Source of the DNA: an uncultured Rhodospirillales bacterium
GTDB lineage: Bacteria; Pseudomonadota; Alphaproteobacteria; CACIAM-22H2
DNA: 49,087 bases
Assembly (NCBI GenBank): GCA_903860935.1
Contig: CAIOSQ010000274.1
Span: 1-49,087, forward strand
Direction: 5' to 3'
Part shown: positions 2,787-38,325 of the stretch, one piece after another
How the letters are laid out: each line of letters starts with the position of its first letter
How positions within the stretch are numbered: the first letter of the stretch is position 1
Translations under genes and position numbers: made by a program
The notes under the pieces: generated by a model
The model's input: the letters and a program-made list of their open reading frames with translations, nothing else
Told to the model about the DNA's origin: nothing
The model's database searches: none

Positions 2787-2799
2787 TGTAGCTTGGCGG

Positions 2800-7740: not shown

Positions 7741-8348
7741 CCGGGACGCGGCGCCGGTGTCGCGCGGTAGCGCGCGGCTTCACCCTGGTCGAACTCCTCG
7801 TGGCCATGGCGCTCGCCGGGCTCGTCCTGCTCGCGCTGTTCGGCGGGATGGCGATCGCCGTACGCGGTGTCGCGCAGCTCGCGTCCGGAAGCGAACGGGT
7901 CGACGAGCGGCGCCAGCTCGCGCTCTGGCTGCGGCGCGAGATCGAGGTCGCGCTGCCGCCGGATCGCGGTGGTCTGGCGCGGCTGCCCTTCGTGGGCGAG
8001 GCCGCGGCGCTGCGTTTCCTGACCATCGACGCCGCAGGCGCGACGGAGGTCTCGCTCGCGCTGGAGGCCGCGCTCGACGGCACGTCCGGTCGGCTGGTGC
8101 TGGTGCGGCGCCCTCTTGATGGTGGCCTGCCGGCGCGCGTCGTGCTGGCGCGGGACTTGGCGTCCTTGCGGTTCTCCTACTGGGGACGGCACGCCGAGGC
8201 GGAGGGTGCGCGCTGGGCCGACAGCTGGAGCGATCCGCGCGAGGTCCCGGTGCTGGTGCGGGTCGCGATCACGCGGTCCGGCGCTGAGGAGGCGCTGCCG
8301 ATCGTCGTGCGCCTGCGCGCCGCCGATTCCCGGGCGTCGGCGCCATGA
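7737..8348 (+). CDS. gspJ: Minor pseudopilin GspJ
   Basis: ARG|FTLVELLVAM and C-terminal LRFSYW...W..SW..P.LVRV pattern; ATGA overlap. Confidence 0.85.
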   Translation: MTGTRRRCRAVARGFTLVELLVAMALAGLVLLALFGGMAIAVRGVAQLASGSERVDERRQLALWLRREIEVALPPDRGGLARLPFVGEAAALRFLTIDAAGATEVSLALEAALDGTSGRLVLVRRPLDGGLPARVVLARDLASLRFSYWGRHAEAEGARWADSWSDPREVPVLVRVAITRSGAEEALPIVVRLRAADSRASAP

Positions 8349-9244: not shown

Positions 9245-9309
9245 TGCGTGCGGCGCGGCACCTCTGATAGGATCGCATCCGTGAGGCGTCAGGCGGTGCG
9301 GCTTCGGCC

Positions 9310-10431: not shown

Positions 10432-10967
10432 TCCGCGCGGGGAGCATGGTCGCGCGCGTCGCTGCGCTTGGGCTGCTCGCGGGCTTCGCGGCGGCGCTCT
10501 GGGCCGGTCCGGTCGCGATCTATCGCGAGGCGCTTGACGCGTCGCACACCCGCGTCGCCCAGGCATCGGCGCTGGCGGCGCGCTATCGTCTCCTGGCCGC
10601 GGGGCCGCCCGATGGCGCGGTGCCGCGCGCGGCGTCCGGCCTTCTGCTTGCCGACCTGCCGGCCGCGCAGTCCTTCGCGGCGCTCAGCGAGACCATCAAG
10701 CAGGCCGCGGATGCGGCCGGTCTTGCGGTGCAGGGGCTGCAAGGCCTGGGCGAGGAGAGCGTCCTCGGCCTGCAGCGCAGCGGGGTGCGCGTGCGCGGCA
10801 CGGCCACGCTCGCCGGGCTGGCGCGGTTCCTGGCGACGGTGGAGGGCGGCATGCCGCTCCTGATCGTCGACGGGTTGCGCGTCCAGTCGCGCCAGGGGAC
10901 CGGCGCCACACAGGAGGAGCGACTGGAGATCCAGATGGACATCGTCGGCTTCCGGGAGCCGACATGA
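10428..10967 (+). CDS. gspM: GspM-like T2SS protein
   Basis: N-terminal TM, coiled region, L.RFL..VEGGMPLLIVDGL pattern; follows gspL with GTGA overlap. Confidence 0.75.
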   Translation: MIRAGSMVARVAALGLLAGFAAALWAGPVAIYREALDASHTRVAQASALAARYRLLAAGPPDGAVPRAASGLLLADLPAAQSFAALSETIKQAADAAGLAVQGLQGLGEESVLGLQRSGVRVRGTATLAGLARFLATVEGGMPLLIVDGLRVQSRQGTGATQEERLEIQMDIVGFREPT

Positions 10968-11409: not shown

Positions 11410-13407
11410 TCACTCCGCCGCGTGGGCGGGCGACGCGCCCGGCGCGTCGTCGCGGCGCGGCCGACGCACGGGCAGCGCGACGCGCCAGCGGCGGTCGGCG
11501 AGGCCGGTCAGTCCGCCGATCGCCATCAGGCCGGCACCGATCCAGATCCAGGGGACCAGCGGCTTCCAATAGGCGCGTACAACCCAGCTTCCGGACGGAT
11601 CCGGATCGCCCAGCGCGACATAGACGTCCGACAGAAGGTTGGTGCGGATCGCGGTGTGGCTGGTGACGCGGCGCTGCACCGTGAACAGGCGCCGCTCCGG
11701 ATGAAGCGTCGCGATCGTCGTTCCGTCGCGCGACAGCGTGATCGTGGCACGGTCCGCGAGGTAGTTCTCGCCGGTGCGCTTGTCGACGGCCTCGAGCTTC
11801 AGCGCGTAGCCACCGATCTCCACCGTGTCGCCCGGGCGCATGGCCTGGATCCGCTCGACCTCCCAGGCCGAGGCGGCGATGCCGAAGGTCGTGATCGCGA
11901 CACCCAGATGCGCGAGCGCCATGCCATGGGCCGCCAGCGGCCGGTGGCGGGCGCGGCGCAGGCTCTCGGCCAGCGGCGCGCGGAAGAGATGGATGCGGTC
12001 CGCCCATTCGACCAGCACGCCGACGGCGAGCCAGCAGGCGAGGCCAAGCCCGCCGATGGCGAGAAGAGGACCACCGCCGGTGGCGTAGAGGGCGACGCCC
12101 ATCAGGACGATCGCTGCCGCGAAGGCGAGCCACAGGCGTTGCAGGGCCCCCAGCGCATCGCCGCGCTTCCAGCCGAGGAACGGACCGACCGCAAGCGCAA
12201 GCAGCAGCGGAACCATCAGCGGCGAGAACGTGGCGTTGAAGAAGGGCGGTCCGACCGAGATCTTGCCGCCGCCCATCACGTCGACGATCAGCGGGTAGAT
12301 GGTGCCGATGAAGACGGTCGCCGTGGCGGTCGAGAGCAGGAGGTTGTTGAGGACAATGGCGCCCTCGCGCGAGACCGGCGCGAAGATCCCGCCGCCGCGC
12401 AGCGACGGCGCGCGCAGAGCGTAGAGCGTGAACGAGCCGCCGATCGCGGCCCCGAGCAGCAGCAGGATGAAGCTTCCGCGCGCGGGATCGACGGCGAAGG
12501 CATGGACCGAGGTGAGGACGCCGGAGCGGACCAGGAACGTACCCACCAGGGACAGGCTGAAGGCGACGAGGGCCAGCAGGACCGTCCAGGTCTTCAGCGC
12601 CTCGCGCTTCTCCACCACGATCACGGAATGCATCAGCGCCGTGCCGACCAACCAGGGCATGAAGCTGGCGTTCTCGACCGGATCCCAGAACCACCAGCCG
12701 CCCCAGCCCAACGTGTAGTAGGCCCACCAACTGCCGGTGGCGATGCCGATGGTCAGCGGGATCCAGGCGGCAAGCGACCAGGCGCGGACCCAGCGCGCCC
12801 AGAGCGCGTCGACACGCCCTTCGAGCAGCGCGGCGACCGCGAAGGCGAAGGTGATCGAGTAGCCGACATAGCCGAGATAGAGGAAGGGCGGATGGAAGGC
12901 GAGGCCCGGATCCTGCAGGATCGGGTTGAGGCCGCGCCCGTCCGCGGGCACGGGGAAGACGCGCAGGAACGGGTTCGACGTGGCGAGGATGAAGATCCCG
13001 AAGCCGGTGGCCACCATGCCCTGGATCGCGAGCACCCGCGCGCGCAACGTCTGCGGCAGTTCCGCGCCGAACACCGCGACGGCCCCGCCGAACAGCGCGA
13101 GGATGAGGATCCAGAGCAGCATCGAGCCCTCATGGTTCCCCCAGACGCCGGTGATCTTGTAGAGCATCGGCTTCGTGCTGTGGCTGTTCTCGGCGACGTT
13201 CGCGAGCGAGAAATCCGAGGTCGCGTAGGCGTGGACGAGGGCGAGGAAGCTGAAGGCGACGAACCCCGCCTGGAGCAGGGCGGAGGGTTGTCCCACCGCC
13301 ATCAGGTTGGGGTCGCCGCGCTGCGCCCCCCAGAGCGGGACCACCGCCTGGACCAAGGCGAGCATGGTCGCGAGGATAAGCGCGAAATGTCCGAGTTCGG
13401 CGAGCAT
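11410..13407 (-). CDS. ccmF: Cytochrome c heme lyase CcmF/NrfE family
   Basis: MLAELGHFAL, WGNHEGS, LNPILQD...HPP, WWD motif WGGWWFWDPVENAS, RSGVLTSVHAFA. Confidence 0.97.
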   Translation of the reverse strand: MLAELGHFALILATMLALVQAVVPLWGAQRGDPNLMAVGQPSALLQAGFVAFSFLALVHAYATSDFSLANVAENSHSTKPMLYKITGVWGNHEGSMLLWILILALFGGAVAVFGAELPQTLRARVLAIQGMVATGFGIFILATSNPFLRVFPVPADGRGLNPILQDPGLAFHPPFLYLGYVGYSITFAFAVAALLEGRVDALWARWVRAWSLAAWIPLTIGIATGSWWAYYTLGWGGWWFWDPVENASFMPWLVGTALMHSVIVVEKREALKTWTVLLALVAFSLSLVGTFLVRSGVLTSVHAFAVDPARGSFILLLLGAAIGGSFTLYALRAPSLRGGGIFAPVSREGAIVLNNLLLSTATATVFIGTIYPLIVDVMGGGKISVGPPFFNATFSPLMVPLLLALAVGPFLGWKRGDALGALQRLWLAFAAAIVLMGVALYATGGGPLLAIGGLGLACWLAVGVLVEWADRIHLFRAPLAESLRRARHRPLAAHGMALAHLGVAITTFGIAASAWEVERIQAMRPGDTVEIGGYALKLEAVDKRTGENYLADRATITLSRDGTTIATLHPERRLFTVQRRVTSHTAIRTNLLSDVYVALGDPDPSGSWVVRAYWKPLVPWIWIGAGLMAIGGLTGLADRRWRVALPVRRPRRDDAPGASPAHAAE

Positions 13408-13418: not shown

Positions 13419-16400
13419 TCAGCGTCGCGTTGCAGCCGGCACGAAATCACCCGGCCGACCCGTGGGGGAGACCGCGTAGGGCTTGCCGTCGCGGTCGATA
13501 TAAAGGCGGCGCTGTTCCTCCAGGGTGAAGGGGCGGGATCCGATGCGCCCGAACACCGCCACCTGACCGCCGCTCTCGTCGACGCCGCGGTCGCGTTCCA
13601 GCCCCCGCGACAGCGACAGCGCGGGCGTGCGCGTCTTGCGCCAAGCCACCAACTCGGGCTTGGGCTCGGGCGAGAAGCCGTAGAAATTCGGCTGGCTGTC
13701 CGGCGAGGTCAGTTGCACGACCTTGAGCCCGTTGGCGCCATCCGCCACATAGGCGAAGGCCGAGGCGTTGGTCGCGCCGATCACCACGTCGCGCGCGTCG
13801 TTGAGGCGCCCGCCATCGGTGAAGCGCTGGTGGACGCGCGGATGCTCGGGGCGCTCGACGTCGACGATCACGAGGCCCTCGCGGCCAGCCGCCACGTAGG
13901 CATAGGTGCGGGCGACCATCATGCGGTGCGCGTCGGCCATCGGGAGATGCGCCGAGGGCACCGGGCGCGGCGTCGCCGGCGCGGTGACGTCGATCACGTG
14001 CATGCCCTTCGTGTCGAGCGCGAAGAGGTAGCGGAACTGGATGGCGGTCGACCGCAGATCCGCGAAGGGCAGCGTCGCGAGGACCTTCGGCTCCAGCGGC
14101 TTGTCCATGTCGAGGACGACCAGCCCGGCGCGTGCCGCGATATAGAAATACCGGCCGGCGATGGTCAGGTGACGGGCCCCGTCGAGGATGCCGCCCGCGT
14201 TCCAGGTCAAGGCGCGGCGCAGGAAGTTGTTGCGCGGCTCCCCGTCGGCCAGCGTGTTGACGTCGGTCAGGATCAGGCCTTCCACGGAATCCGTGATGAA
14301 GGCGTAGTCGTAGATCGGGTGGAAGGGCTGCTCCTGGTTGAGCTCCTGCATCTTCGGATCGGCGCCGCGCGCCGGATGGATCGGCTGCGTCGTCGGTAGC
14401 ACGACGCAGGTCGCGTCGCGCGAGGCGATATGCGTGTCGTGACCGAGCGCCGCGAAGGGCGCGGAGATGATCCGTTGCGATACGCCCTTGTTGGCGATGC
14501 TGGCGACGTCGTAGACGCGCATGCCGCTCGACCCTTCGGCGACGAAGAGATATTCGCCGCGCAGCTGCAGGCATCCGACCTGCGCCGCGGTGCCGCGCGT
14601 ATCGGTCTCGGCCAGGGCGCGGCCGCGCGCGAGATGCTCGCCGTACCATTTCGGATAGGCATAGCGGTGCAGGTAGCTGCCGATGACCGCCTGCGGCTCG
14701 TCCCATTCGGTGACGCGCACGGCCTCGAAGCTGCGCTCGCCGCCGACCCAGGCGTTGAGCCCGACCATGTTGACGTAGTTGGTCCCGTGCAGGAGCAGCT
14801 GCGCCATGATCGCGTTGTTGTCGTTGGCTTCGGAGATGTGGCAGTCGGCGCAGCCCTTGGTTTCCGTCAGACGCTCGGTATGCGGATAATGCGGCGCGAA
14901 GGCCTGGCTCGAATAGCCGGCCGCGGAGATCGGTGGCTGTTGCGCGTAGATCCGCTCGCGGTTGATGTTGGTCGAGGACAGGACCAGGGCCGAAGTCGAG
15001 CGGATCGGCGCGATGATGTTGCCCTTGATCGTGCCGTGCCGGCCGAGTTGGAACATGTCGTCGCGCGCGACCTGCGGATTGTAGGTGGCGTAGTTGCGCG
15101 TCTCGCCGCCCTCGTAGTGATGGCGCTCGGTCTTGAAATTCGCCTCGATCGGAAGATGGCAGCCGCCGCAGCTCGTCGTCCAGGAGAGGTGGCAGGTGTA
15201 GCAGGCCAGTTCTTCGTCCTTGTGGGCGAGATCCGCCGCCGGGATGCCGGGACCCCATTTCATGGAGCCGTCGTTGCTCATCAGCTTGGCGCGCGCGGAT
15301 TTCGCGTTGTACTTGGCGTTCGCCGGATCGACGCTGTCCTTGACCAGCGACACCTCCCATTCGAGGTCCGGATACAGCGACGACCGCTGGAAGAGCTTGC
15401 CGTCGATCCACTCGAAGCGGGGGCGGCCGAAGCTCGTGCGCATGAGCGACAGGTCGGTGCCGCCGGGCCGCGCCGCGGGACCGGAGGTCCGCAGGCTCGG
15501 ATAGGCTTTCGACGTGCCATGGCAATCGGCGCAGCCGATCTCGATCGCCGCGGCGACCTCGCCATAGATGTGGCCGTTGCCGTGGCTGTCCTGGGCGAAA
15601 TGGCAGTCGACGCAGTGCATGCCGGCATCGACATGGATCGACGACATGTGGACCGCCTTCTTGAACTTCTCGGGGTCCTCCGGCGGGATCACGTTGTCGG
15701 CGGCGTCGAGCAGGTTGCCCTTGCGGTCGCGCTTGTAGATGGCGCGGAAATTCCAGCCATGGCCGTGGTAATCGGCGAACTGCGTGTCCTTCAAGTCGGG
15801 ATTGAGGGCGCTGACCTCGCGCAGGAAGGCCGGATCCGCCCAATTGCCGCGGACTGACGCGCCCTCGGGGTTGCGCCGCAGGGTCTTGGCGATTTCTTCG
15901 TCGGTCGGGAATTTCTGCTCGGCCGGAAACATCTTCGGGGCGTCCGGCTCGTAGTCGTACATGGTGTAGCCGAGCATGCTGTTGAGGAAGATGTTCGGCT
16001 GGTGCATGTGGCAGATCATGCACTGGCTGGTCGGGATCGCTTTCGTGAACTCGTGCTTGAGCGGGTGGCCGGAGCGGTCATGCGGGATCGTCGGGTCGAC
16101 CGTCTTTGACGTGCCGCGATTGCCGAAGCGGGCGTAGGGGCCCGAATGCTTCACGTCGCGGTCGTTGGCGTAGACGACGTGGCACGACGCGCAGCCCGAG
16201 CTGCGATAGTCGCCCGGCTGGTCGTTGGTGCCGAGGAACCACATGAACGGGTCGTTCAGGCGCGTCTTGGTGATGTTGAGTACGGGGATCGCAACACGCA
16301 GACCGGTCGCGGGGCCGCGATTCGATTGCTTGAGATCGGGGCGTCCCGGCTCCTCCAGGCGCTGGATCTGGCCGGTCACGTTGGGCAGGCCGATTTCCGG

Positions 16401-17165
16401 GAACTGGGTCAGGATGTTGCGCCCGCCGCGCTCGAAGACGCGGAACACGTCGGCCGGCGGCGTCACTTCCCAGGCCGGGAGCGGATAGAGTTCTGGCAGC
16501 AATCCGCGGCTGCGGGTCAGTTCGGGGCTGGGCTTAACCGGGGCCACCAGCTTCGCGGGCTGTCCGTCGCGCGTGTAGCCCTCGCCAAGGAGGTAGTTTT
16601 TGAACGGCAGGATTCCGTTGTTGTAGGACGCGCCGCCCCAGAGCATGGCGCCGGTCGCCATCAGGCTGCGCTCGGCGGCCTGGATGACCGTGAGATGGCA
16701 CGCGCCGCAGGCCTCGCGCGCGACGCGGTAGTCGCTGGGGTTCACGAAGCGGATGTAGTCGGGCGATTCCTTGTTCAGCAGCGTGTAGCTGCGGATGGGG
16801 TTGGCGCTGCCCGAGGCGGTCCAGAATTCGGGCAGGCGCGGCTGGACATGCGCCTTCGCCATCGCGGCGCCATAGGCGGGGCCGTCCTTGCTGCTTCCGG
16901 CGGGACGCATGACGCCCGCGTCACCCCCATGACAATCCGCGCAGCCGAGGACGACGGCGGGATTGCTGTGCATGTTCGCGGAATCGGATTTCTCGTGGCA
17001 GGTGAGGCATCCGGCGCTCTTTTCCGCCGCGCGGTCGGGATGCTGCCGATCGGGAGCCGGCGGGAAGAGCGGTGCCGAGGCGACGCGCGGGCCAGGGCCA
17101 TCGGCCGCCCAGCTCGACGGAACCGCGAAGACGATCAGGAGGAGCGCGAGGAGGAGAAGGCGCAT
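13419..17165 (-). CDS. Large exported decaheme cytochrome c with C-terminal LVIVD-repeat (beta-propeller-like) domain, 1248 aa
   Basis: Sec signal (MRLLLLALLLIVFAVPSSWA). Ten CxxCH (CLTCH, CADCH, CGACH, CASCH, CMICH, CVDCH, CADCH, CYTCH, CGGCH, CADCH). Repeats GMRVYDV, GLILTDV, GLVVLDM, GMHVIDV, GLVIVDV, GLKVVQL. Confidence 0.9.
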   Translation of the reverse strand: MRLLLLALLLIVFAVPSSWAADGPGPRVASAPLFPPAPDRQHPDRAAEKSAGCLTCHEKSDSANMHSNPAVVLGCADCHGGDAGVMRPAGSSKDGPAYGAAMAKAHVQPRLPEFWTASGSANPIRSYTLLNKESPDYIRFVNPSDYRVAREACGACHLTVIQAAERSLMATGAMLWGGASYNNGILPFKNYLLGEGYTRDGQPAKLVAPVKPSPELTRSRGLLPELYPLPAWEVTPPADVFRVFERGGRNILTQFPEIGLPNVTGQIQRLEEPGRPDLKQSNRGPATGLRVAIPVLNITKTRLNDPFMWFLGTNDQPGDYRSSGCASCHVVYANDRDVKHSGPYARFGNRGTSKTVDPTIPHDRSGHPLKHEFTKAIPTSQCMICHMHQPNIFLNSMLGYTMYDYEPDAPKMFPAEQKFPTDEEIAKTLRRNPEGASVRGNWADPAFLREVSALNPDLKDTQFADYHGHGWNFRAIYKRDRKGNLLDAADNVIPPEDPEKFKKAVHMSSIHVDAGMHCVDCHFAQDSHGNGHIYGEVAAAIEIGCADCHGTSKAYPSLRTSGPAARPGGTDLSLMRTSFGRPRFEWIDGKLFQRSSLYPDLEWEVSLVKDSVDPANAKYNAKSARAKLMSNDGSMKWGPGIPAADLAHKDEELACYTCHLSWTTSCGGCHLPIEANFKTERHHYEGGETRNYATYNPQVARDDMFQLGRHGTIKGNIIAPIRSTSALVLSSTNINRERIYAQQPPISAAGYSSQAFAPHYPHTERLTETKGCADCHISEANDNNAIMAQLLLHGTNYVNMVGLNAWVGGERSFEAVRVTEWDEPQAVIGSYLHRYAYPKWYGEHLARGRALAETDTRGTAAQVGCLQLRGEYLFVAEGSSGMRVYDVASIANKGVSQRIISAPFAALGHDTHIASRDATCVVLPTTQPIHPARGADPKMQELNQEQPFHPIYDYAFITDSVEGLILTDVNTLADGEPRNNFLRRALTWNAGGILDGARHLTIAGRYFYIAARAGLVVLDMDKPLEPKVLATLPFADLRSTAIQFRYLFALDTKGMHVIDVTAPATPRPVPSAHLPMADAHRMMVARTYAYVAAGREGLVIVDVERPEHPRVHQRFTDGGRLNDARDVVIGATNASAFAYVADGANGLKVVQLTSPDSQPNFYGFSPEPKPELVAWRKTRTPALSLSRGLERDRGVDESGGQVAVFGRIGSRPFTLEEQRRLYIDRDGKPYAVSPTGRPGDFVPAATRR

Positions 17166-17167: not shown

Positions 17168-19009
17168 TCAGAAGGTCAGCACGAGGTTGCCGAGGACGGA
17201 ATAGAGGAGCTTTCCGTCGGACTGGGTGCCGTTCCCGGACGTGTCATAAAGCGCCTCCAGCCCCTTGCCCGGCACCAGGATGGCGCCGGACAGCCGCGCC
17301 ACCACGTTCTGCGTGAAATAGGGACGGTAGATCAGCGCCGCCGAGACTTCCCAGCCGATGGCGGTGTCGATCTTGCCCTGGTTGCGCAGATATTCCAGCG
17401 ACGACGTGTCGACGAAGCTCAGCCGGTTGAGGTTGGTCGACAGCCGCAGTTCCGGCAGCAGGTCCATGTCCGTCCCGACGCCGAGCAGATTGAGCCCGGG
17501 ATTGACGAAATTCGACTGGCCTTCGTCCTTCGACGACCGCAGCGCGGGCAGCAATCCGTTGCGCGGCGAGAGCGTGACGCCGCCGCCGCCGATCAGCGGC
17601 ATGGCCTGCCGGATCCAGTAGCTTGTGTCCGCGCCGGCGAAGACCGGGTTCTCGAAGATCGCATCGAAGCCTGTGGCCACGCGGTCGCGCGGGTTGCGAT
17701 CGCCGCTGGCATGCAGCCCGGACAGGCGCACGCGCAGCCAGTCGAAATCCATCGACGCCTCGGCTGCGCCGAAATAGGCGCGGATGTCCTGGGGCTTGTT
17801 GTTGCCGGCGAACTGGTTCCGCTCGTCGCGGCCCAGCGCGTAGTAGATCGAGGAGGTCAGGTTGATCCGGCCGAAATGCCCGTCGCCGTTGAAGCCGAAA
17901 TAATTGACGATGTAATCGCGCCCGCGCTGGTCGCCGATGGTCGCCGGCCGCACCAGGAAGCCGTTCTGGTCGTAGTGCTGGGTGTCGCCCTCGTTGTTGC
18001 GGTTGAGGACGTAGGTGATCTGCGATGTGTGACCGAGCACGGGCAGATCCTGGCCGTAGAGGTTCAAGATCGCGATGTCGTCGTTGCGCAGCGGCGCCGA
18101 GATGTCGTTGAGGCCGCTGTTGGTCTCTTTCTCGATGCGACGGAAATAGGCGGCATTGTACTGGAACCGGTTGTTGTAGCGGTTGCCGAAGAGCCGCACG
18201 CCGAGCTGGTTGTCCTGGAACAGGAAGCCGCGGAAATCGGTCGAGAAGGGCTGGATCCCGACCCGCAGCGAGTCGAAATCGTAGCGGTCGGAGACGTTGC
18301 GCAGGTGGTAGTCGACGAAGGCTTCCTGAAGCCCGGTGAACCCGTCGGTACGCTGGGTTCCACGCCCGGGATCCGCGAACAGGGCGCCGACCTCTTCCGC
18401 CTTGACCCGGTTGTAGTTGACGACCGGCGTCAGCCGGATCTCGAAATCGGGCGGCTTGAAGGCCGTGTTGCCCTTGATGAGCGCCACGCTGGCGATGACG
18501 CTCTGGCTGAACACGGTCTGGGTGTAGCGGCCGAAGGTGTTGTTGGCGCCGGGCGTGGCGGTGCCCTGGTTGCCGACGGGGATGGGGACGCGGCGCGGCT
18601 CGAAGATCGTATCCGAGATCGCCGTGAGACTGACGAACCAGTCCTCTCCGAAGACCGGCTTGTCGCCCTTGATCGTGTTCGTGTTGTAGGGGTCGTAGAG
18701 TTTCTCCGGACCGAGCAGCGTGTCGAGCAGGCGCCAGCGGTCGGGGATGGGAAGGAATTCGCGCGGCAGCACCGGCGCGGGCGGCGGGACGGCGTTGGGA
18801 TCCGTGACCGGCTCGACCCGATCCTGTGCCGCGGGTCTGGGGGCGGGCGCCTGAGCCGGACGACGGCGCGGATCCTCGCTCGCCTGGGCGAGTTCGCTGC
18901 CTTGCACCGGCGGCGCGGGCGGCGGCGGTGGCGGCGGCCAGGACCGAGCCAGCGCCGGAAGGCTCAGGCCGACAAGGAGCGCCGCGGCGGTGGCCGGGAT
19001 CGGTTTCAT
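17168..19009 (-). CDS. Putative outer-membrane beta-barrel protein (613 aa)
   Basis: Real start MKPIPATAAALLVGLSLPALA overlaps the upstream stop (ATGA). Signal peptide, Pro-rich linker, many amphipathic strands rich in N/D/G/aromatics, terminal ...GNLVLTF (BAM-type C-terminal Phe). Confidence 0.8.
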   Translation of the reverse strand: MKPIPATAAALLVGLSLPALARSWPPPPPPPAPPVQGSELAQASEDPRRRPAQAPAPRPAAQDRVEPVTDPNAVPPPAPVLPREFLPIPDRWRLLDTLLGPEKLYDPYNTNTIKGDKPVFGEDWFVSLTAISDTIFEPRRVPIPVGNQGTATPGANNTFGRYTQTVFSQSVIASVALIKGNTAFKPPDFEIRLTPVVNYNRVKAEEVGALFADPGRGTQRTDGFTGLQEAFVDYHLRNVSDRYDFDSLRVGIQPFSTDFRGFLFQDNQLGVRLFGNRYNNRFQYNAAYFRRIEKETNSGLNDISAPLRNDDIAILNLYGQDLPVLGHTSQITYVLNRNNEGDTQHYDQNGFLVRPATIGDQRGRDYIVNYFGFNGDGHFGRINLTSSIYYALGRDERNQFAGNNKPQDIRAYFGAAEASMDFDWLRVRLSGLHASGDRNPRDRVATGFDAIFENPVFAGADTSYWIRQAMPLIGGGGVTLSPRNGLLPALRSSKDEGQSNFVNPGLNLLGVGTDMDLLPELRLSTNLNRLSFVDTSSLEYLRNQGKIDTAIGWEVSAALIYRPYFTQNVVARLSGAILVPGKGLEALYDTSGNGTQSDGKLLYSVLGNLVLTF

Positions 19010-20877
19010 GGCAGGCATGGGCTCTGTTCCAGGGAATCCAGGAAGGGAGCGAAGGGGCAATTCACATAGCGCAGCCGCGTGCCCTGGGGCTCCAGCGTGT
19101 CGGCGCGCAGCGGCGCCTGGTTGAGCGTGCCGCCGGCATTCTGGATCGCCAGATAGGCGATCATGTCGTCCTGGTCGATGCCGTCGCCGGAGACGCCGAC
19201 CGCGCCGACCAGCGTCGCGCCGCGATAGACCGGCACGCCGCCGGCGAAGATCTGCAGCCCGTTGGCGAGGCGCGTGCGGCCATCCGAGGCGACCGCGAGC
19301 CCAGCCGCACCGGGTCCGGCGCAGCCGGAGGCGGGCGGAGCGTTGCCTCCGAGCAGGGCCACGATGTTGCCTGCGACGAGATCGAGTTGGAACCCCGTCG
19401 CGAAGGGGCTCCAGGTCGCGAAGGGACGGCTGAGCGGACCGCTGGGACCGGCATTGATGCCGTCCGGATAGAAGGGGCGCGCGATGTTGCCGATCGCACG
19501 CGTCGTGAAGGCGATCCCGTCGGCGAGGGCGCCCGCGCCGAGGAAGGCGCGCGTGTCGGTCACGGTGGTCGCGAAGCCGCCGCCGAGCGCGGTGAGCTCG
19601 GCGCCGGTCTGCGGGCGCGACAGGAAGGCCGCGGAGCGCGCCTTCTGCACCGCGACATCCGTGCCGAAGACCGGCGCGTCGGGCGTGCGGGCGAGGGCAA
19701 GGACGTTGCCGTCGGCGTCGACGACGCTGACCGTCACCTGCGCGAAGCTGTCGGTCGGCTTGCGGATCTGGGCGCGCGCCCGGAACGCCGTCTCCAGGCC
19801 GCGCTGGACGAGCAGCCTGGCCTCGTTGGCGGTAAGCCCCGCGCCGCCGGCCGGGGCGAGCCCGGCGCGCGGCGCGAAACGGTTCGCCCCCGTCCCATCG
19901 TCCAGGACGAAGGCATTCAGGCCCGGATAGGTCGTGCCATTGTCCGGCCGGATCCCGGACGCGATCGTCCCGTATTCCTGGCCGGCGCGGACCGTGCCGT
20001 CGAAATAGCCGGTGACCGCAACGGCCGCGAAGGCGCCGGGTGCGGCGACAGCGGCGGCGAGCGCATCGCTGTCGACATAGCGCAGGGACCGCCCGACCAC
20101 CGTGATGTTGTCGGCGCGGATGGAGCCGGCGGGCCGGAAACCGGACGTTCCGGCGATCGCGATCAGCTCGTCGGTGTCGGTATCGAAGTCGAAGATGTTG
20201 CGGTCGAGCGTGTAGACCCCGTCGGCGACGATGCCGATCCCGCCCACCGGGGTGCCGTTCTTGTACAGCGGCAATCCGCCGGGATCGGCGGCGAGACCGA
20301 GCGGCGAGCGCATCGGCCCCGCGCCCGGCGTCGCGCGCACGACGTCGGAACAGGGCAACTGGCTGAACTGCACGCCGAAGAGCGGCCCGCCCATCTGGTT
20401 GAGTTCGCCGGGCAGGAAGTTTTCCTGCACGATCTGGCTGGCCGTGCGCGTCGAGAAGGCATTGCCGCCGGAGGACAGATAGGCACCCGTGATCGCCTTC
20501 GCGATCGCGGCGAGTTCGCCCGGAACGTCCGCGTCCTCGAGGCCAGCCCCGGTGATGCCGCGCTGCGATGTCACCCGCGCCGTCGCCGGCGCGCCCGCCA
20601 TGCGTGTGACGGCGAGGACGTTGCCGACCCGGTCGACGACCGCGATCGTGGCGGGTCGGTTGCGCGCAGTCGCTTCGTTCATCGCCTGCAGCACGATCGT
20701 GTTGACGTTGGCGACGGTAAGGAAGGGTGCCGGATCGTTGCTGCTGGCCGGCACGGAATCGGGCGATCCGCCGCCGCCGCCGCCGCAGGATGGCGCGCCA
20801 AGGAACAGCGCCGCCAGGAGGCAGAGCGCCGGCGGCAGCATGCGCCTGCTGGCGCGCGATCCGGTTGGCGTGGACAA
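19006..20877 (-). CDS. Putative lipoprotein with two GlcG/HbpS-type heme-binding domains (start may be ATG at 20841)
   Basis: Hydrophobic leader ending APSC, then a GGGGGGS linker. Two copies of the family signature: IAVVDRVGNVL...AIAKA...GGLPLYKNGTPVGGIGI and VSVVDADGNVL...AVQKARSA...GGVPVYRGATLVGAVGVSG...DD. Confidence 0.85.
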   Translation of the reverse strand: MSTPTGSRASRRMLPPALCLLAALFLGAPSCGGGGGGSPDSVPASSNDPAPFLTVANVNTIVLQAMNEATARNRPATIAVVDRVGNVLAVTRMAGAPATARVTSQRGITGAGLEDADVPGELAAIAKAITGAYLSSGGNAFSTRTASQIVQENFLPGELNQMGGPLFGVQFSQLPCSDVVRATPGAGPMRSPLGLAADPGGLPLYKNGTPVGGIGIVADGVYTLDRNIFDFDTDTDELIAIAGTSGFRPAGSIRADNITVVGRSLRYVDSDALAAAVAAPGAFAAVAVTGYFDGTVRAGQEYGTIASGIRPDNGTTYPGLNAFVLDDGTGANRFAPRAGLAPAGGAGLTANEARLLVQRGLETAFRARAQIRKPTDSFAQVTVSVVDADGNVLALARTPDAPVFGTDVAVQKARSAAFLSRPQTGAELTALGGGFATTVTDTRAFLGAGALADGIAFTTRAIGNIARPFYPDGINAGPSGPLSRPFATWSPFATGFQLDLVAGNIVALLGGNAPPASGCAGPGAAGLAVASDGRTRLANGLQIFAGGVPVYRGATLVGAVGVSGDGIDQDDMIAYLAIQNAGGTLNQAPLRADTLEPQGTRLRYVNCPFAPFLDSLEQSPCLP

Positions 20878-20880: not shown

Positions 20881-22557
20881 CTAGCGCTCCTGTCGGATCT
20901 TGGTCATCGGTGCCGTCCCGTGGATGTGGAACCCGTGGCAGGATGTGCAGTCGCTGGGGACTTTGAGGGTCGCGTTGGCGGCGCCATGGCAGGCGACGCA
21001 GGTGCCGAGATCGGGTATCAGCACGTCGCTGCTGCTGGTCGACTGCTCGGCCTTGTGGCACTCGCCGCAGCCCATTGTAAAGTGCTGACCGTGGTCGAAG
21101 CGCGTCTTGGGAAGATGGCTGTCGAGCACGATGACGGGTTCGATCGAGACCGTCGCACCTTTGCGCGTGGCGATATGACACGAGGCGCAGCCGCGCCGCG
21201 GATCGAAGACGAGGTCGACGGCGGCGTCGACGCGCTGCTGGACCCAGGCACGCAGTTCCAGGCGCTCCGCCTCGGTCACGGGCTGACCGACCCGCAGGCG
21301 CGGCAGGCCCGCGGCGATCTCGGCGTCGCCGCCCTCGAGCGCGATGCGCGCATAGGCGTCGCGCAGATAGGCGTGCACGGCCTCGGGGTCGCCATGCGGA
21401 ACCGTGCGCTCGGGCGCCTTCGGGTCGAATTTCAGCGTGTGGCACCAGCCGCAATCGGTTTCGAAGCGCGTCGGCATGAAGCCCTGGCGACCGGCATCCG
21501 GGGCATGGCAGCTGGCGCAGTCGAGCTTGACCAGCCCTTTGGGCGACAGCACGCCACCCGTCTTGAGATGCGCGTCATGCGGGAATTTGAGCGTCGCGAG
21601 GTTCTTCGGCGGGGTCGGGCCGCTCAGGTCGACGCGTTCGAGGACCGGCCCCGTCGTGTCCTTCACGACGGTGACGCGGAAGGGCGGGTGGCCATCCGGG
21701 AAGCCGGTGACCGCGCGCAGATGGCTTCCCGCCATGCGTCCGTCGCCACCCGTATGGCAGTCTGTGCACAGACGGTCGTCGCGCAGGATCGACGCCTGGG
21801 CGCCGCGATGCTCGGTGTGGCAGTCGCCGCAGCCGGCATTGTCCAGCCCCGCCTTGCGCACCGCGTCGCCGATCGCATGGCCGGGCAGTCCGGTATGGCA
21901 TGCCGCGCAGGCCGAATCCGGCACCGAGGCGAAGGCCCGCTGGTGGCAGGCGCCGCAATCGGCGGCGAAGTGCTTATGGGCGTCGGAGATCTCGCCGACG
22001 GTCCAGCTGAGATCGGCGACGCGGGTCCAGCCTGGCTTCGGCACCGCATGGTCCGCACGTTGCGGGCCCCAGCCGAGGAAGCTTCCGACTGGAATGGCGA
22101 GGCCGAAAACGACCAGGAGCAGGAACAGCATCCAGGACGGCAGGCGTTTGCCCAGCCGGGTCCGCTCCAGCCCGATGCGGCTGGTCTTGCGCAGCCGGGC
22201 GAGATCGTCGCCCGGCGGATCGACCAACTCGATCGCGATCGCGGCGTCGTATCCCGCGCCTGGCGTATCGAGCGTCAGCTTGTAGGGGCCGATCCGGATC
22301 TCGTCGCCGGACACGACGAGGGCATTGGTCGTGGACTTGCCGTTGACGCGCACGTCGCCCGGCGCGGTCGCGCGCAGCCGCATGCCGCCGGCGTCCGGCG
22401 ACAGCTCGGCGGCGATCAGCGCGACGCGCAGGTCGGGCAGGCCGACCTCGTTGCCGGGGCCGCGCCCGAGATGCAGGACCGGCGCATCGGCTTCCGCCGT
22501 CCGCCGCGCGGGAGCGCCGCGTTCGCGCCGGGTGATGTAGCCGAGTTCAGCGCGCAT
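20881..22557 (-). CDS. Membrane-anchored decaheme cytochrome c (c3-like) with N-terminal FHA-like domain
   Basis: LHLGRGPGNEV...VRVNG...L.SGDEIRIGPY (FHA-like), one TM (WMLFLLLVVFGLAIPVG), then ten CxxCH (CGACH, CAACH, CGDCH, CTDCH, CASCH, CGWCH, CASCH, CGECH, CVACH, CTSCH) with FPHDAH/FDHGQH distal-His motifs. Confidence 0.88.
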   Translation of the reverse strand: MRAELGYITRRERGAPARRTAEADAPVLHLGRGPGNEVGLPDLRVALIAAELSPDAGGMRLRATAPGDVRVNGKSTTNALVVSGDEIRIGPYKLTLDTPGAGYDAAIAIELVDPPGDDLARLRKTSRIGLERTRLGKRLPSWMLFLLLVVFGLAIPVGSFLGWGPQRADHAVPKPGWTRVADLSWTVGEISDAHKHFAADCGACHQRAFASVPDSACAACHTGLPGHAIGDAVRKAGLDNAGCGDCHTEHRGAQASILRDDRLCTDCHTGGDGRMAGSHLRAVTGFPDGHPPFRVTVVKDTTGPVLERVDLSGPTPPKNLATLKFPHDAHLKTGGVLSPKGLVKLDCASCHAPDAGRQGFMPTRFETDCGWCHTLKFDPKAPERTVPHGDPEAVHAYLRDAYARIALEGGDAEIAAGLPRLRVGQPVTEAERLELRAWVQQRVDAAVDLVFDPRRGCASCHIATRKGATVSIEPVIVLDSHLPKTRFDHGQHFTMGCGECHKAEQSTSSSDVLIPDLGTCVACHGAANATLKVPSDCTSCHGFHIHGTAPMTKIRQER

Positions 22558-22581
22558 CGGTTCCCGCCCCCCGCCGCACCG

Positions 22582-23466
22582 TCAGAAGTAGAAGAAGACG
22601 GCGACGACATGCGCCGTCAGGGCCGCCAGCAGGGCGAAGGACAGCGGCACGTGCAGATAGAGCCAGATGTCCATAAGCGCCTTGTAGCGGAGGTCGCGGC
22701 TGATCACGTCGAGATACTCCAGCCGCTCGCCGAGCAGGCCAAGGACGCGCTGCGCCTGTGCGCGCTGCTCGGGCACCGCGTCGGCGGCCGTGATGCGCCG
22801 CAGGGCGAGGCGCGTCGCGCAGTTCGGGCGCGTGCCGGAGAGCTGGCGCCATGCCGAGCCGCCGATCGCTACCTGGTTCATCGCCGCGAGGACGAGGCCC
22901 GCCTGCCGGTCGTCGAGACCAAGGGCGGCCTGACGCATGTCACCGTCGAGCGCGGCGATCTTCGCCATCAGATCGGACACCGTCGCGCCATGGCGGTTGC
23001 GGGTCATCTGCTCCGGCACCGCGGCATAGACGATCATGCCGAAGGCGCCGCTCGCGATCACCGCCATCATCAGCGCATAGGCGAGGGTGTGGATGTTGAG
23101 GCCGAACTCGAAGCCGGTATGCAGCGTCGCCACGACGATCAGCGCGAGGCCGAGATAGACATGCGCCGACAGCCAGCCCTGCAGGCGTCCGATGCGGCCG
23201 TAGGAGCGCTTGCGCATCCCGAACCACATCAACCAGAGGATCAGCGCGGCGCCGATCGTCCCCAGCGTGTACCCGAGCCAGGTGCCGCCGTTGGGCGCGG
23301 TGAGCGGGCGATGCAGTGCGTAGGCCAGGATGGTCGCGAGGCACAGCCAGATGCCCCATTTCAGGAAGCGGAACCCGCGATAGGCCAGGAAGGACTGGTG
23401 GATCTCGCCCGGGGGGATCCGCTTGCCGGCCGCGGCGGCGCCCGGCTTGGCCGTCGCGGCGCTCAC
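22582..23466 (-). CDS. Integral membrane protein, putative di-heme b cytochrome (ferric-reductase-like transmembrane domain)
   Basis: GTG start overlaps the upstream stop. About 5 TM segments. Two His pairs separated by 13 residues in TM helices: HVYLGLALIVVATLH and HVPLSFALLAALTAH. Confidence 0.75.
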   Translation of the reverse strand: MSAATAKPGAAAAGKRIPPGEIHQSFLAYRGFRFLKWGIWLCLATILAYALHRPLTAPNGGTWLGYTLGTIGAALILWLMWFGMRKRSYGRIGRLQGWLSAHVYLGLALIVVATLHTGFEFGLNIHTLAYALMMAVIASGAFGMIVYAAVPEQMTRNRHGATVSDLMAKIAALDGDMRQAALGLDDRQAGLVLAAMNQVAIGGSAWRQLSGTRPNCATRLALRRITAADAVPEQRAQAQRVLGLLGERLEYLDVISRDLRYKALMDIWLYLHVPLSFALLAALTAHVVAVFFYF

Positions 23467-25868
23467 GAGGCACCTCCGCGACGGATCATGGCGACGTATT
23501 CCTCTGGCCGCACGCGGATCGCCGCGCCGGTCGGACATGCACGCACGCAGGCCGCGCCACCTTCGATGCCATGGCACATGTCGCACTTCACCGCTTTCTT
23601 GCGGCTGGACTCGCCGCCATGGTGCTTCTTCGCCGCCTTGTTCTCTCCGGGGCCCGGGCCGCGGCCGAAGAACAGCCAGCTCAGCAGGCCGGGCTTTTCT
23701 TCCGCCGGAGCGGCCATCTTGATCACGCCATAGGGGCAGTTGCGCTCGCAATTGCCGCAGCCGATGCAGGTGTCGGCGATCGTCACCTCGCCGCTGGGCG
23801 CGCGCTTGATCGCGTCGGGCGGGCATTCCTTCATGCAACTCGGATGCTCGCAGTGGCGGCATGAGGTCGGCACGTGGATCGAGGCGAAGGTGGCCCCGGC
23901 CTCGCGATCCAGCCGCGAGATCCGGTCATGCGTCTCGGCGCAGGCCTTCTCGCAATTGTCGCAGCGGATGCACAGCGTCTCGTCGATCAGCAGCACGTCG
24001 GTGGCTTCGCCGAGGCCCTCGCGCATGAGGAAGTTGACGAGGGCACCGCTTTCGCTGTCGGCGGTCTGATGCGCGCTGCTGCGCACGCGCTCGCTGAATT
24101 TTTCCTCCACCCGGCGCCGCAATTCGGGGGCCGCGTCCAGCAGGTCTCGCACCGCGGCCGCAGGCAGCTTGATCACCTGGGTGGCCACGGCGGCCTTGAC
24201 CGATGCCGTGCGCGGCGCGTTGCGCAGCAGGGCCATCTCGCCGACATAGTTGCCCGCCGCGAGATAGGTGAGGACGACTTCCTGACCGCCGACCATGCGG
24301 GAGACCAGCACCGATCCCGAGCGGATCAGGTACATCGCGTCGTCGGTGGCACCTTCCTGGATCAGGATCTCGCCGGCCTTGAGCGAGACGATCTCCGCCT
24401 CGCGGATCACCGGCGCCAGGATGGCGCTGTCGAGATCCTGGCCGAGATAGCTCTTCACCACGCGCACGATCGCGACCTCGTCGATCGCGCGCGCCACGCT
24501 CGGCACCGAGCGCTGCAGTCGCAGCATGGTGTTGCGCGGCACCTCGAGCAGCAGCGCGCCATCGCGCGCGATCACCGTCGCGCCGCGACGGCGGCCCGAG
24601 AGGAGGCCGATCTCGCCGAAGAATTCGCCGCCGCGCAGCACCGGGTTTGCTGGCGCGCCGGCCTCGCCGATCAGAACCTCCACGCTGCCGTCGACGATGG
24701 CGTAGAAGCTGTTGGTGTAGTCGTTGCGCTCGAAGATCTTCTGTCCTGGCGCGGCCAGATGGACCTCCGATGTCAGGAGGAATTCGCGGATCTGCAGCGG
24801 CGAGAGTTCCGCGAAGACCGGCACCTGCTCGCGGATCGTCGCGATGAACGGGCTGACCGCGAGGCCGGGTTGCGCGGCGTCGAGCTTGGCCTGGATCAGC
24901 GGTTCGTCGGCCGGCGCCACCGGGTTGCCGAGGATGTACTCGACGACCTCGTAGCCCTGGTTCATGCATTGCTTGATCAGCGGATAGCCGGCCAGCGCGC
25001 CGATGATGTAGAGGCCGGGCACATTGGATTCGTAATGGTCGCTGACGACCGGGAAGGCCGACGGGCTGTCGCTTCCGAACACGATGCCGCAGGATTCGAC
25101 GAATTTGCGCGGCGGCAAGGCGCCGAGCCGCGCGATGACGCGGTCGCACCGGATTCGTGTCTCGCCATCCGCCGTGTCGACGGTCATCCAGCCTGGTTCG
25201 AGGCGCTTGGGCGCGGTGCGGACCATCGCCTGCATACGGCCGTCGGCGATCGCCGTCTGGAGGAGCTGGACGTTGGCCGGTTTGGCGTTGGGATACTCTG
25301 CACCGCGGTTGAGGATCGTCACCGTGTTGGCGTTGGACAGGACGAGGGCGTTCTCGATGCCGGCGTCGCCGGTGCCGACGACCACGATATGCTCGTCCTG
25401 GAATTCGTCGGGATCGTCCAACTGGTACTGGACGGACGGCAACTCGGCCCCGGGCACCGTGAGCTTGCGCAGATTGCCCTGGAGACCGATCGCGAGCACG
25501 ACCGCGCGCGCGCGCACGACGCTGCGATCGGCGAGGGTGAGGCGGAAATCGCCGCGTTCGCCCTTGATGCCGACGACCTCCGCGTTGAGCCGCACGTTGC
25601 ATCCTGCCGCCTCGACGCCGCGATCCCAGGTCTCCAGCACGGTCTCGCGCGAACCCTCGGCGAAGCCGACATCGGCGCGCAGCGGCAGGATGTCCGGCGT
25701 CGCCATGACGTGCTTGCGCCGCTGGTACTTGTAGATCGTGTCCGACAGGTGCCCGGTGCGCTCGAGCAAAACGTGGCTGACGCCGCGCGCGGCGGCCCTG
25801 GTGACCGCGGCGATCCCGCCCGGCCCCGAGCCGACAATGGCAATTTCGAAGATGTCGTCGCCGCTCAT
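23463..25868 (-). CDS. Fusion: TrxR-fold FAD/NAD(P)H oxidoreductase + two cNMP-binding domains + 4x[4Fe-4S] ferredoxin (DmsB/NrfC-like)
   Basis: GSGPGG FAD motif, GTGDAG dinucleotide motif, SNVPGLYIIG. Cassettes FFGEIGLL....RGATV and YVGEMALL....RTASV. Cys sets CIRCDNCEKAC, CRHCEHPSCMKECP, CIGCGNCERNCP, KCDMC...CVRACP. GGAGG RBS before the ATG at 25868. Confidence 0.92.
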   Translation of the reverse strand: MSGDDIFEIAIVGSGPGGIAAVTRAAARGVSHVLLERTGHLSDTIYKYQRRKHVMATPDILPLRADVGFAEGSRETVLETWDRGVEAAGCNVRLNAEVVGIKGERGDFRLTLADRSVVRARAVVLAIGLQGNLRKLTVPGAELPSVQYQLDDPDEFQDEHIVVVGTGDAGIENALVLSNANTVTILNRGAEYPNAKPANVQLLQTAIADGRMQAMVRTAPKRLEPGWMTVDTADGETRIRCDRVIARLGALPPRKFVESCGIVFGSDSPSAFPVVSDHYESNVPGLYIIGALAGYPLIKQCMNQGYEVVEYILGNPVAPADEPLIQAKLDAAQPGLAVSPFIATIREQVPVFAELSPLQIREFLLTSEVHLAAPGQKIFERNDYTNSFYAIVDGSVEVLIGEAGAPANPVLRGGEFFGEIGLLSGRRRGATVIARDGALLLEVPRNTMLRLQRSVPSVARAIDEVAIVRVVKSYLGQDLDSAILAPVIREAEIVSLKAGEILIQEGATDDAMYLIRSGSVLVSRMVGGQEVVLTYLAAGNYVGEMALLRNAPRTASVKAAVATQVIKLPAAAVRDLLDAAPELRRRVEEKFSERVRSSAHQTADSESGALVNFLMREGLGEATDVLLIDETLCIRCDNCEKACAETHDRISRLDREAGATFASIHVPTSCRHCEHPSCMKECPPDAIKRAPSGEVTIADTCIGCGNCERNCPYGVIKMAAPAEEKPGLLSWLFFGRGPGPGENKAAKKHHGGESSRKKAVKCDMCHGIEGGAACVRACPTGAAIRVRPEEYVAMIRRGGAS

Positions 25869-25881
25869 CGCTGCCTCCACG

Positions 25882-25946
25882 CATCCCCTGCCGCCAGCCA
25901 TCCCTGCCGCCAGCCATCCCTGCCGCCAGCCATCCCTGCCGCCAGC
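25882..25946. repeat. Tandem repeat, 4 x 16 bp (CATCCCTGCCGCCAGC)
   Basis: Copies at 25882-25898 (one extra C), 25899-25914, 25915-25930 and 25931-25946, read directly. Confidence 0.95.
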
Positions 25947-37411: not shown

Positions 37412-38325
37412 CCGCCCGTGCCGATCGCCACGAAGCCGGCGCGCTGATGCGGCGCGCCGCGATGGCCTCCGTGGTCGTCGCGGCGACGCTGATCCTGGCC
37501 AAGGTCGGGGCTTGGCTGATGACCGACTCCGTGGCGGTACTGTCGAGCCTGCTGGACTCCCTGCTCGACGCCGCAGCCTCGGTGATCAACCTTGTCGCCG
37601 TCCGCCATGCCCTGACCCCGGCGGATGACGATCACCGGTTCGGCCACGGCAAGGCCGAGCCGCTGGCCGGGCTCGCGCAATCCGCGTTCATCTGCGGGTC
37701 GTCGCTGATCCTGCTCATGGAGGCGATCCACAGGTTCGGCGCGCCGCAGCCGGTGCAGCGGCCGGAAATCGGGATCGCGGTCGCGCTGCTGTCGATCCTG
37801 CTCTCCGCGGCCCTGGTCGTCTACCAGCGCCGGGTCGTCGCCCGGACCGGCTCGGTCGCGATCGCCGCGGACTCGCTGCACTACGGAAGCGACGCCCTGC
37901 TCAACGGCGCCGTCATCGCCGCCATCGTGATCGGTCGGTTCTTCGACCTGCCGTTGGCCGATCCGGTCTTCGGTGCCCTGATCGCGCTGTGGATCCTCTA
38001 CGGGGCGATCCGGATCGCGCGCCAGTCCTTCGACCTGCTCATGGATCGCGAATTGCCGGCCGACGACCGCGCCCGGATCCTGACGATCGCGCGTGCGCGG
38101 CCCGAAGTGCGCGACGTGCATGATCTGCGGACCCGCTCCGCAGGCACGCATATTTTCGTGCAGATGCATATCGAACTCGATCCCGACATGCGTCTGGCGC
38201 GCGCCCATGCGATCGCCGACGGCGTCGAGCACGACATCCGCGCCGCCTACCCGCATGCGGAGATCATCATCCACCAGGATCCGGCCGGCGAGATGGAGGC
38301 GCATCGCGCGCAGGCCGCGCCATGA
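37408..38325 (+). CDS. fieF: Cation diffusion facilitator (FieF/YiiP-like)
   Basis: [43 protein letters not shown]. Confidence 0.9.

Follow-up and report, generated by a model that had tools for sequence, protein, structure and literature searches.

What does a bacterial cell gain from a protein that joins a flavoenzyme, two cyclic-nucleotide-binding domains and a polyferredoxin in a single chain? The question is raised by a locus of an uncultured Rhodospirillales bacterium (contig CAIOSQ010000274.1 of assembly GCA_903860935.1), of which the whole stretch of 49,087 nucleotides, here called the window, was analysed. The protein in question (P0001) is the product of gene A. A first-pass annotation, made from the sequence alone, had divided it into a flavoprotein of the thioredoxin reductase (TrxR) fold, two cyclic nucleoside monophosphate (cNMP) domains and a polyferredoxin, and had missed the operon in which the gene stands. 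This context alters what the gene A protein is for, gene A being the first of seven genes in a minus-strand operon (11410–25868) that also encodes a membrane protein and multihaem cytochromes. We consider it reasonably probable that gene A encodes the cytoplasmic, cyclic-nucleotide-sensing entry subunit of a trans-envelope multihaem conduit, linked to reduced nicotinamide adenine dinucleotide (phosphate), NAD(P)H.

In such a conduit NAD(P)H would reduce the flavin adenine dinucleotide (FAD) of the YpdA/TrxR-fold domain, from which single electrons would move along four [4Fe-4S] clusters, cross the inner membrane via two b haems of the five-helix protein B, enter the membrane-anchored periplasmic decahaem cytochrome C and pass onward via an outer-membrane module of proteins D and E to the secreted decahaem LVIVD protein F. 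The tandem cNMP domains, placed between flavin and wire, would modulate throughput upon binding a cyclic nucleotide. If this is true, the route exists in hundreds of proteobacterial species that are common in soils, fresh waters and the sea; it would deliver NAD(P)H electrons to the cell surface while bypassing the quinone pool, and so bear on the redox chemistry of iron, manganese and humic substances outside the cell in oxic–anoxic habitats. The cNMP pair would then be a rare case of second-messenger action on an electron-transfer chain itself, as opposed to transcription, a kinase or a channel. The idea is open to ordinary biochemistry, since the gene A protein is soluble and present in cultured bacteria such as Zavarzinia sp. 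CC-PAN008.

Flavin head and polyferredoxin

The four-part architecture is borne out by matches in Pfam and the PDB. Pfam places Pyr_redox_3 at residues 11–290 (E 5.1e-28) and Pyr_redox_2 at 8–305, finds cNMP_binding (PF00027) in two stretches (E 8.8e-37; 125.4 bits against a gathering cut-off of 27.5) and assigns the 4Fe-4S dicluster families Fer4_7, Fer4_10 and Fer4_11 across approximately residues 665–785, with Fer4_11 (PF13247) at 31.8 bits against a gathering cut-off of 26.2. A PDB sequence search cuts the protein into three, namely a YpdA/Bdr part (8–294), a tandem cNMP part of the type found in regulatory subunits of protein kinase A (PKA; 374–591) and a HycB part (626–785), and no solved PDB chain spans the whole architecture. 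Neither a transmembrane segment nor a signal peptide is predicted, and the product of gene A, which is single-copy in its genome, is by prediction a cytoplasmic protein. Conservation was read from an alignment of P0001 with 74 full-length homologues from 80 genome loci (75 sequences, 52–63% identity), to which all counts out of 75 refer. The AlphaFold2 model built from this alignment has a mean predicted local distance difference test (pLDDT) of 80.4 and a predicted template modelling score (pTM) of 0.73. Structure prediction, which the first-pass annotation had named as a check, succeeds only in part: the flavin and cNMP domains are modelled with high confidence and the iron–sulfur (FeS) domain poorly, its ten-residue blocks beyond residue 620 having pLDDT values of 45–68.

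The flavin domain has the fold of a thioredoxin reductase without its redox dithiol. In the phmmer alignment to the L. lactis TrxR (5mh4), Y148-Q-L-D151 stands opposite the Cys-x-x-Cys segment, and no Cys is present at positions 146–153 in any of the 75 family members, so that the absence of CxxC first noted in this one protein holds throughout the alignment. Y148, D152 and P153 are invariant and V146, Q147, Q149, L150 and D151 each occur in at least 70 sequences, the segment that replaces CxxC resembling that of the TrxR-type ferredoxin-NADP+ reductases (FNRs) 3ab1 and 5ygq. Both dinucleotide motifs are intact, with G13, G15, P16 and G18 of the first and G165, G167, D168, A169, E172, N173 and A174 of the second (G165-x-G-D-A-x-x-E-N-A174) found in all 75 sequences. 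Three features expected of a TrxR-type FNR, the TrxR fold, both dinucleotide motifs and the lack of CxxC, are thus found here; a C-terminal aromatic residue stacked on the flavin and NADPH:ferredoxin activity are further marks of such enzymes. The Cys within the first G-G-G-P-C-G motif, which we take to be the catalytic residue of YpdA/Bdr, aligns in 7a7b with G17 of P0001, a column that holds Gly in 34, Ala in 33, Ser in 6 and Cys in 2 of the 75 sequences. Because neither the redox dithiol nor the YpdA Cys is present, the ferredoxin-reductase-like role in electron transfer that had been suggested earlier is a sensible reading.

Fold comparison by Foldseek places the N-terminal domain closest to YpdA 7a7b (TM(target) 0.85; E 1.1e-22 in the PDB sequence search) and to the flavin-reducing form of TrxR (5mh4, TM 0.85), against a TM of 0.58 for the flavin-oxidising form (5mjk) and of 0.47–0.65 for TrxR-type FNRs. 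The two-Rossmann TrxR fold without CxxC is common to P0001 and to its best sequence and fold matches, YpdA/Bdr and the TrxR-type FNRs (7a7b, 3ab1, 5ygq, 3lzw), whereas P0001 lacks the YpdA Cys and carries about 470 extra residues that make up the two cNMP domains and the polyferredoxin. Two family assignments were rejected, thioredoxin-disulfide reductase (TIGR01292; 43.8 bits against a cut-off of 343.45, with the redox CxxC absent) and YpdA/Bdr itself (TIGR04018; 132.3 bits against 339.9, with the active-site Cys absent, although YpdA is the best fold match). After the second Rossmann strand the family carries N187 (74 of 75), R188 (66), R194 (69) and K196 (75) as in the NADPH-using YpdA, and these residues suggest NADPH as the likelier electron donor.

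At the other end of the protein, the sixteen Cys that had been read as four cluster motifs of the DmsB/NrfC type (residues 633, 636, 639, 643, 670, 673, 678, 682, 701, 704, 707, 711, 762, 765, 774 and 778) are without exception invariant (75/75), which together with the Fer4_11 score upholds that reading. HycB (7z0s_B) aligns over residues 626–785 with an E value of 1e-16. In a search of 1.84 billion cluster representatives with residues 341–801, 589 matches were obtained at E ≤ 1e-30, and the best 150 of these were classed with hidden Markov models built from the alignment. Fused flavin, cNMP and FeS domains are seen in 51 of the 150, and 29 are stand-alone proteins of 440–564 residues with two or three cNMP domains and the FeS domain, lacking a fused flavin domain. 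The remainder comprises 16 proteins with other N-termini, 47 that are short, likely fragments, or FeS only, 6 poly-cNMP giants and 1 other. The stand-alone forms imply that the cNMP pair goes with the FeS wire and not with flavin spacing as such. The classes taken together indicate that the cNMP pair and the polyferredoxin are a conserved unit, fed by the flavin head as one input among several.

The reading frame of gene A reaches as far as 25901 when the longest reading is taken in the list of open reading frames (ORFs). Translation more probably starts at the ATG at 25868, since GGAGG stands ahead of it and the start context is the same in two genomes of the same genus. A 16-nucleotide tandem array of five copies (90% matches) abuts this start codon from the upstream side; it is not found in the same region of the two same-genus genomes, where the start context is otherwise identical, and it could have arisen by expansion in this strain, serve in regulation or be an artefact of assembly.

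Tandem cNMP domains and their ligand

The first-pass annotation had described both cNMP domains as retaining the phosphate-binding cassette, and the family agrees: G418, E419 and R428 in the first domain and G543, E544 and R553 in the second are each found in all 75 sequences, and R426 is likewise invariant. This conservation of Gly, Glu and Arg shows that the two cassettes are genuine and maintained by selection. The triplets RGA and RTA noted in the two cassettes are indeed present in P0001 and are not typical of its relatives. The residue after R428 is Thr in 34, Ser in 33, Ala in 4, Gly in 2, Met in 1 and Asn in 1, and the residue after R553 is Ser in 49, Thr in 13, Asn in 6, Ile in 3, Ala in 2, Val in 1 and Met in 1. 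An inference of cyclic GMP as ligand from the Thr after the cassette Arg therefore fails, since the position is not conserved. PDB searches with each domain singly match cyclic AMP- and cyclic GMP-binding domains alike. Residues 374–591 align continuously over both domains to PKA regulatory chains (4din_B, E 9.9e-19) with canonical cassettes, the difference from the regulatory subunits of PKA and PKG being that the output of P0001 is a redox domain and not a kinase.

Ligand gating of electron flow, for which the first-pass annotation had suggested a change in the flavin-to-FeS distance, is plausible on these grounds. The cassette Gly, Glu and Arg touch the cyclic phosphate in PKA and CRP, and the C-helix is, in other cNMP proteins, the element moved by ligand binding. 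In the AlphaFold2 model the C-helices of the second cNMP domain (581–601 and 606–616) run straight into the FeS domain. By motifs and model, the tandem domains probably take up a cyclic nucleotide and tune the passage of electrons. A stronger version can be put forward only tentatively. Here cNMP binding would re-orient the polyferredoxin relative to the flavin, the membrane cytochrome b or both, and so open or close a quinone-independent route from NAD(P)H to the extracellular decahaem protein that dissipates membrane potential, a two-membrane counterpart of NOX and the ferric reductases under cNMP and possibly FHA/phospho-Thr control.

The cNMP domains might instead be structural linkers or dimerisation modules, or bind a ligand other than a cyclic nucleotide, with electron transfer being constitutive. 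CRP/FNR-fold domains are able to bind other ligands, column counts on a fixed-length alignment show the cassette Arg to be missing, in each domain, from 11 of the 47 more distant fused relatives, and 78 of the 80 loci lack a linked cyclase. However, the full conservation of cassette residues among close relatives, the contacts that these residues make in PKA and CRP, and the retention of Arg in 24 of 26 stand-alone cNMP-FeS forms, for each domain in the same kind of count, make this alternative improbable.

The source of a ligand was sought in the genome, which holds eight class III cyclase matches above the Pfam cut-off. A linked cyclase as a conserved feature was rejected, as tblastn with the cyclase ORFs of this genome gave a match in just 2 of the 80 loci. 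In both, which are gammaproteobacterial, the counterpart of gene A is preceded, a few kb upstream, by a homologue of class III nucleotidyl cyclases (L005, 97–696; L017, 1447–2325), and in the other 78 no cyclase occurs in the flank covered by the search. Residues 480–607, that is the second cNMP domain only, also match the cNMP domain of the PycTIR effector in PADLOC (E 9.1e-28), a member of the Pycsar defence systems that use pyrimidine cyclic nucleotides and in which a cNMP domain is joined to a TIR or membrane effector beside a pyrimidine cyclase. A Pycsar or other defence-system reading was rejected, the match being confined to this domain and P0001 having no TIR domain and its operon no cyclase.

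Membrane passage and direction of flow

If electrons leave the polyferredoxin for the envelope, the product of gene B is the obvious recipient. Its five predicted transmembrane helices carry W98-x3-H102-x13-H116 on helix 3, S139-G140-x-x-G143 on helix 4 and W268-x3-H272-x13-H286 on helix 5. Among 51 sequences H102, H116, H126, H272, H286, G140 and G143 are invariant, and the motif residues, W98, S139 and W268 included, are all invariant or at least 90% conserved. From these motifs we infer that protein B binds two b haems. Its neighbours in the ESM Atlas are automatically named 'ferric reductase like' (score 0.97), which serves as a lead only; Pfam shows no match to the ferric reductase transmembrane domain (PF01794). 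NOX and the ferric reductases (FRE), together with Fre-MsrQ, offer an analogy, in that NAD(P)H electrons pass through a flavin and two transmembrane bis-His b haems to an outside acceptor, with similar His spacing on two helices in NOX/FRE and protein B. Their flavin fold differs, however, FeS wire and cNMP domains are inserted here, protein B has five helices without a Pfam FRD match, and the path here goes on through multihaem cytochromes.

The association of gene A with gene B is close. Among the 73 loci whose downstream flank extends for at least 1 kb, 63 have gene B directly after gene A; eight of the other ten have (B)C-D-E-F just upstream of gene A, and genes B to F stand in order in 28 of the 38 loci whose flank reaches 9.9 kb or more. 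In two of the 73 testable loci (L002, L022) the covered flank holds no partner gene, as might be expected if gene A encoded a soluble NAD(P)H:acceptor reductase that has nothing to do with the genes around it. Such incidental co-location is nevertheless highly improbable, as the gene A stop overlaps the gene B start and synteny is kept over three proteobacterial classes at 52–63% identity.

The core of the arrangement has been described before. He et al. 2017 (PMC5566968) named PCC4 a set made up of an FeS gene, a five-helix membrane protein and a decahaem cytochrome, and defined the inner-membrane protein of PCC3 and PCC4 by two W-x3-H-x13-H motifs and SGxxG, comparing it to dihaem ferric-reductase and cytochrome b domains. 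The bioRxiv preprint 10.1101/2023.11.21.568154 named ptdABCDEFG, a cluster whose function it calls completely unknown and which encodes a cNMP-binding protein bearing 4Fe-4S clusters (PtdE), a membrane protein resembling ferric reductases (PtdF) and a decahaem cytochrome (PtdG). The Ferrigenium straubiae preprint (10.64898/2026.01.22.701106) describes a cluster of an FHA-nonahaem cytochrome, a five-helix protein and a [4Fe-4S] protein. The present operon shares the PCC4/ptd core, with a pfam13247 FeS gene directly upstream of a five-helix gene and then a decahaem cytochrome, and gene B shows the five helices, the SGxxG on helix 4 and the W-x3-H-x13-H on helices 3 and 5; the likeness in gene order is to the published descriptions. 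The published FeS protein has two clusters, whereas gene A encodes four and a fused YpdA/TrxR-fold flavin domain, and PCC4/ptd add a porin, periplasmic tetra- and pentahaem cytochromes and a separate FAD/NAD(P) oxidoreductase. The operon here has instead an HbpS-like lipoprotein, a different outer-membrane protein, a 1248-residue LVIVD decahaem protein, CcmF and T2SS-like (type II secretion system) genes. It contains no porin, tetrahaem or pentahaem genes; a c554-like protein is encoded 9 kb away, and gene E encodes a putative barrel of no family. With the Ferrigenium cluster it has in common an anchored multihaem cytochrome with a cytoplasmic FHA domain beside a five-helix protein and a cytoplasmic FeS protein, but that cytochrome has nine haems as opposed to ten, no flavin or cNMP domains are reported in the part of the preprint at hand, and the FHA match is weak here. 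The outer part formed by D, E and F does not appear in the accessible PCC4, ptd or Ferrigenium texts, and a literature search, outside which most subscription journals lie, found no paper on a fused flavin-cNMP-polyferredoxin protein. The core module (PCC4/ptdEFG and the FHA-nonahaem cluster) is already published, in all cases uncharacterised, and the fused flavin head is the part for which this search gave no description.

Might the same complex run the other way? Electrons given up by Fe(II), Mn(II) or another donor in the periplasm or outside the cell would then pass through F, C and B to the gene A protein, which would reduce NAD(P)+. TrxR-type FNRs are reversible; however, NAD(P)+ reduction from Fe(II) is strongly uphill, and inward electrons oppose the membrane potential. 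The carriers are mostly heterotrophic Alpha-, Beta- and Gammaproteobacteria of soil and water, and Pfam and family scans found no energy-coupling subunit in the operon. We regard this reversal as unlikely, even though PMC5566968 draws PCC4 as an uptake route from an extracellular donor to the quinone pool and finds it in genomes of Fe(II) oxidisers, and 10.64898/2026.01.22.701106 proposes that the FHA-nonahaem cytochrome links Fe(II) oxidation to the quinone pool.

The membrane step may also be questioned. Protein B could be a quinone-reactive cytochrome b, in which case A and B would form a regulated module of the NAD(P)H:quinone or quinol-linked kind, and C would take electrons from the quinone pool or supply them to it. 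The design of an FeS subunit with a dihaem-b anchor does recall NarH-NarI and FdnH-FdnI. On the other hand, no quinone-site motif was seen in protein B, none having been tested for, and Pfam, Foldseek and VIA detect no similarity to NarI, FdnI or cytochrome b561. We rate a quinone module as unlikely, with the suggestion in PMC5566968 that the inner-membrane protein may behave like a quinone-active cytochrome b standing in its favour.

The outward, quinone-independent conduit remains the favoured account. Domain make-up, conserved motifs, operon and synteny are direct observations, from which cofactors, direction of flow, ligand and any gating are deduced. Several points weigh against the account. 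No member of the family has been the subject of an experiment, and the FeS domain, on which the flavin-to-cluster geometry depends, is poorly modelled. Protein B has no significant Pfam match (none at E values up to 10 bar Ni_hydr_CYTB at E 0.23) and no significant Foldseek match, and VIA returns only generic helical bundles at Z 8–10.5, the noise range for helical proteins; with no usable match from these three, the assignment of b haems derives from the motifs. The flow drawn for PCC4 in PMC5566968 is opposite to that proposed here. P0001 itself deviates from its family in having Asn at 194, where 69 of 75 relatives carry Arg, and Gly after R428. Ligand control is not universal, given that only 36 of the 47 more distant fused relatives retain the cassette Arg in each domain, and a cyclase that might supply the ligand adjoins so few of the clusters. 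The distribution is patchy: gene A is present in 5 of 40 related genomes (E ≤ 1e-50), among them 2 of 8 of the same genus, which marks it as an accessory trait.

Outer genes, distribution and neighbours

The remaining genes of the operon and its surroundings are listed with their coordinates in the table. Residues 1–136 of protein C match Yop-YscD_cpl below the cut-off (E 0.001; 19.7 bits against 33.2), and this FHA-like domain may be a second regulatory input to the conduit. HbpS, which the stretches in protein D resemble, represents a haem-degrading or haem-binding family, and gene D is conserved in synteny between genes C and E. An identification of protein F as ExtM was rejected, the match being partial (64.5 bits against a cut-off of 800). 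T2SS-like and c554-like genes similar to those beside the operon lie upstream of the gene A homologue in the marine loci L023, L046 and L077, a recurrence that suggests a dedicated secretion system for protein F.

Table. Features of the window, with positions counted from its first nucleotide
Feature	Coordinates	Strand	Description
Gene A	23463..25868	-	801-aa flavo-cNMP-polyferredoxin protein P0001; frame translates to 801 residues and a stop
Gene A, residues 1–330	24879..25868	-	YpdA/TrxR-fold FAD and NAD(P)H domain, without CxxC and without the YpdA Cys
Gene A, residues 345–470	24459..24836	-	cNMP-binding domain A, cassette G418-E419...R428-G-A
Gene A, residues 471–600	24069..24458	-	cNMP-binding domain B, cassette G543-E544...R553-T-A
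Gene A, residues 620–795	23484..24011	-	HycB/DmsB/NrfC-type polyferredoxin, 16 Cys in four [4Fe-4S] motifs
Gene B	22582..23466	-	294-aa protein with five transmembrane helices; GTG start overlapping the gene A stop (GTGA)
Gene C	20881..22557	-	558 aa; cytoplasmic FHA-like N-domain (weak match), one transmembrane helix (137–165), periplasmic decahaem part (10 CxxCH)
Gene D	19006..20877	-	623-aa putative lipoprotein; lipoprotein-like leader, three HbpS-like stretches, no CxxCH
Gene E	17168..19018	-	616-aa secreted protein; signal peptide, C-terminus ...L-T-F, no Pfam family, putative outer-membrane barrel
Gene F	13419..17165	-	1248-aa secreted decahaem protein; 10 CxxCH, LVIVD repeat
Gene G	11410..13407	-	CcmF, cytochrome c maturation
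Accessory genes beside the operon	1397..10964	+	prepilin peptidase, T2SS E ATPase, T2SS K, PilN-like, T2SS M; the range also takes in the minus-strand c554-like cytochrome
c554-like cytochrome	1400..2707	-	4 CxxCH and one CX4CH
16-nucleotide tandem array	25866..25946		abuts the gene A start codon
515-aa protein	38322..39866	+	AAA_33/zeta-toxin-like kinase domain in the C-terminal third

Relatives of the gene A protein are numerous. Of 8000 scored protein candidates 6464 match P0001 at E ≤ 0.001, and the best 120 homologues have 780–821 residues and identical Pfam sets, those that are named being labelled merely 'cyclic nucleotide-binding domain-containing protein' or with composite JGI labels. 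At least 587 stretches in species-representative genomes encode a relative. In a quick maximum-likelihood tree the beta- (8 rows) and gammaproteobacterial (27 rows) clades are nested within alphaproteobacterial grades, P0001 grouping with genomes labelled Azospirillaceae and Stellaceae. The cultured example Zavarzinia sp. CC-PAN008 is represented by locus L034.

In 14 sequencing runs from 10 studies, at least 0.82 of the words sampled from genes A and B are present, as near-identical DNA. The share is 0.25–0.35 in four metatranscriptome runs of riverine origin, which suggests, as judged from word shares, that the two genes are transcribed; in two further runs (X19, X20) the shares of 0.18 and 0.10 are too small to count. 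Elsewhere in the window, the 515-residue protein with a zeta-toxin-like kinase domain is unrelated to gene A.

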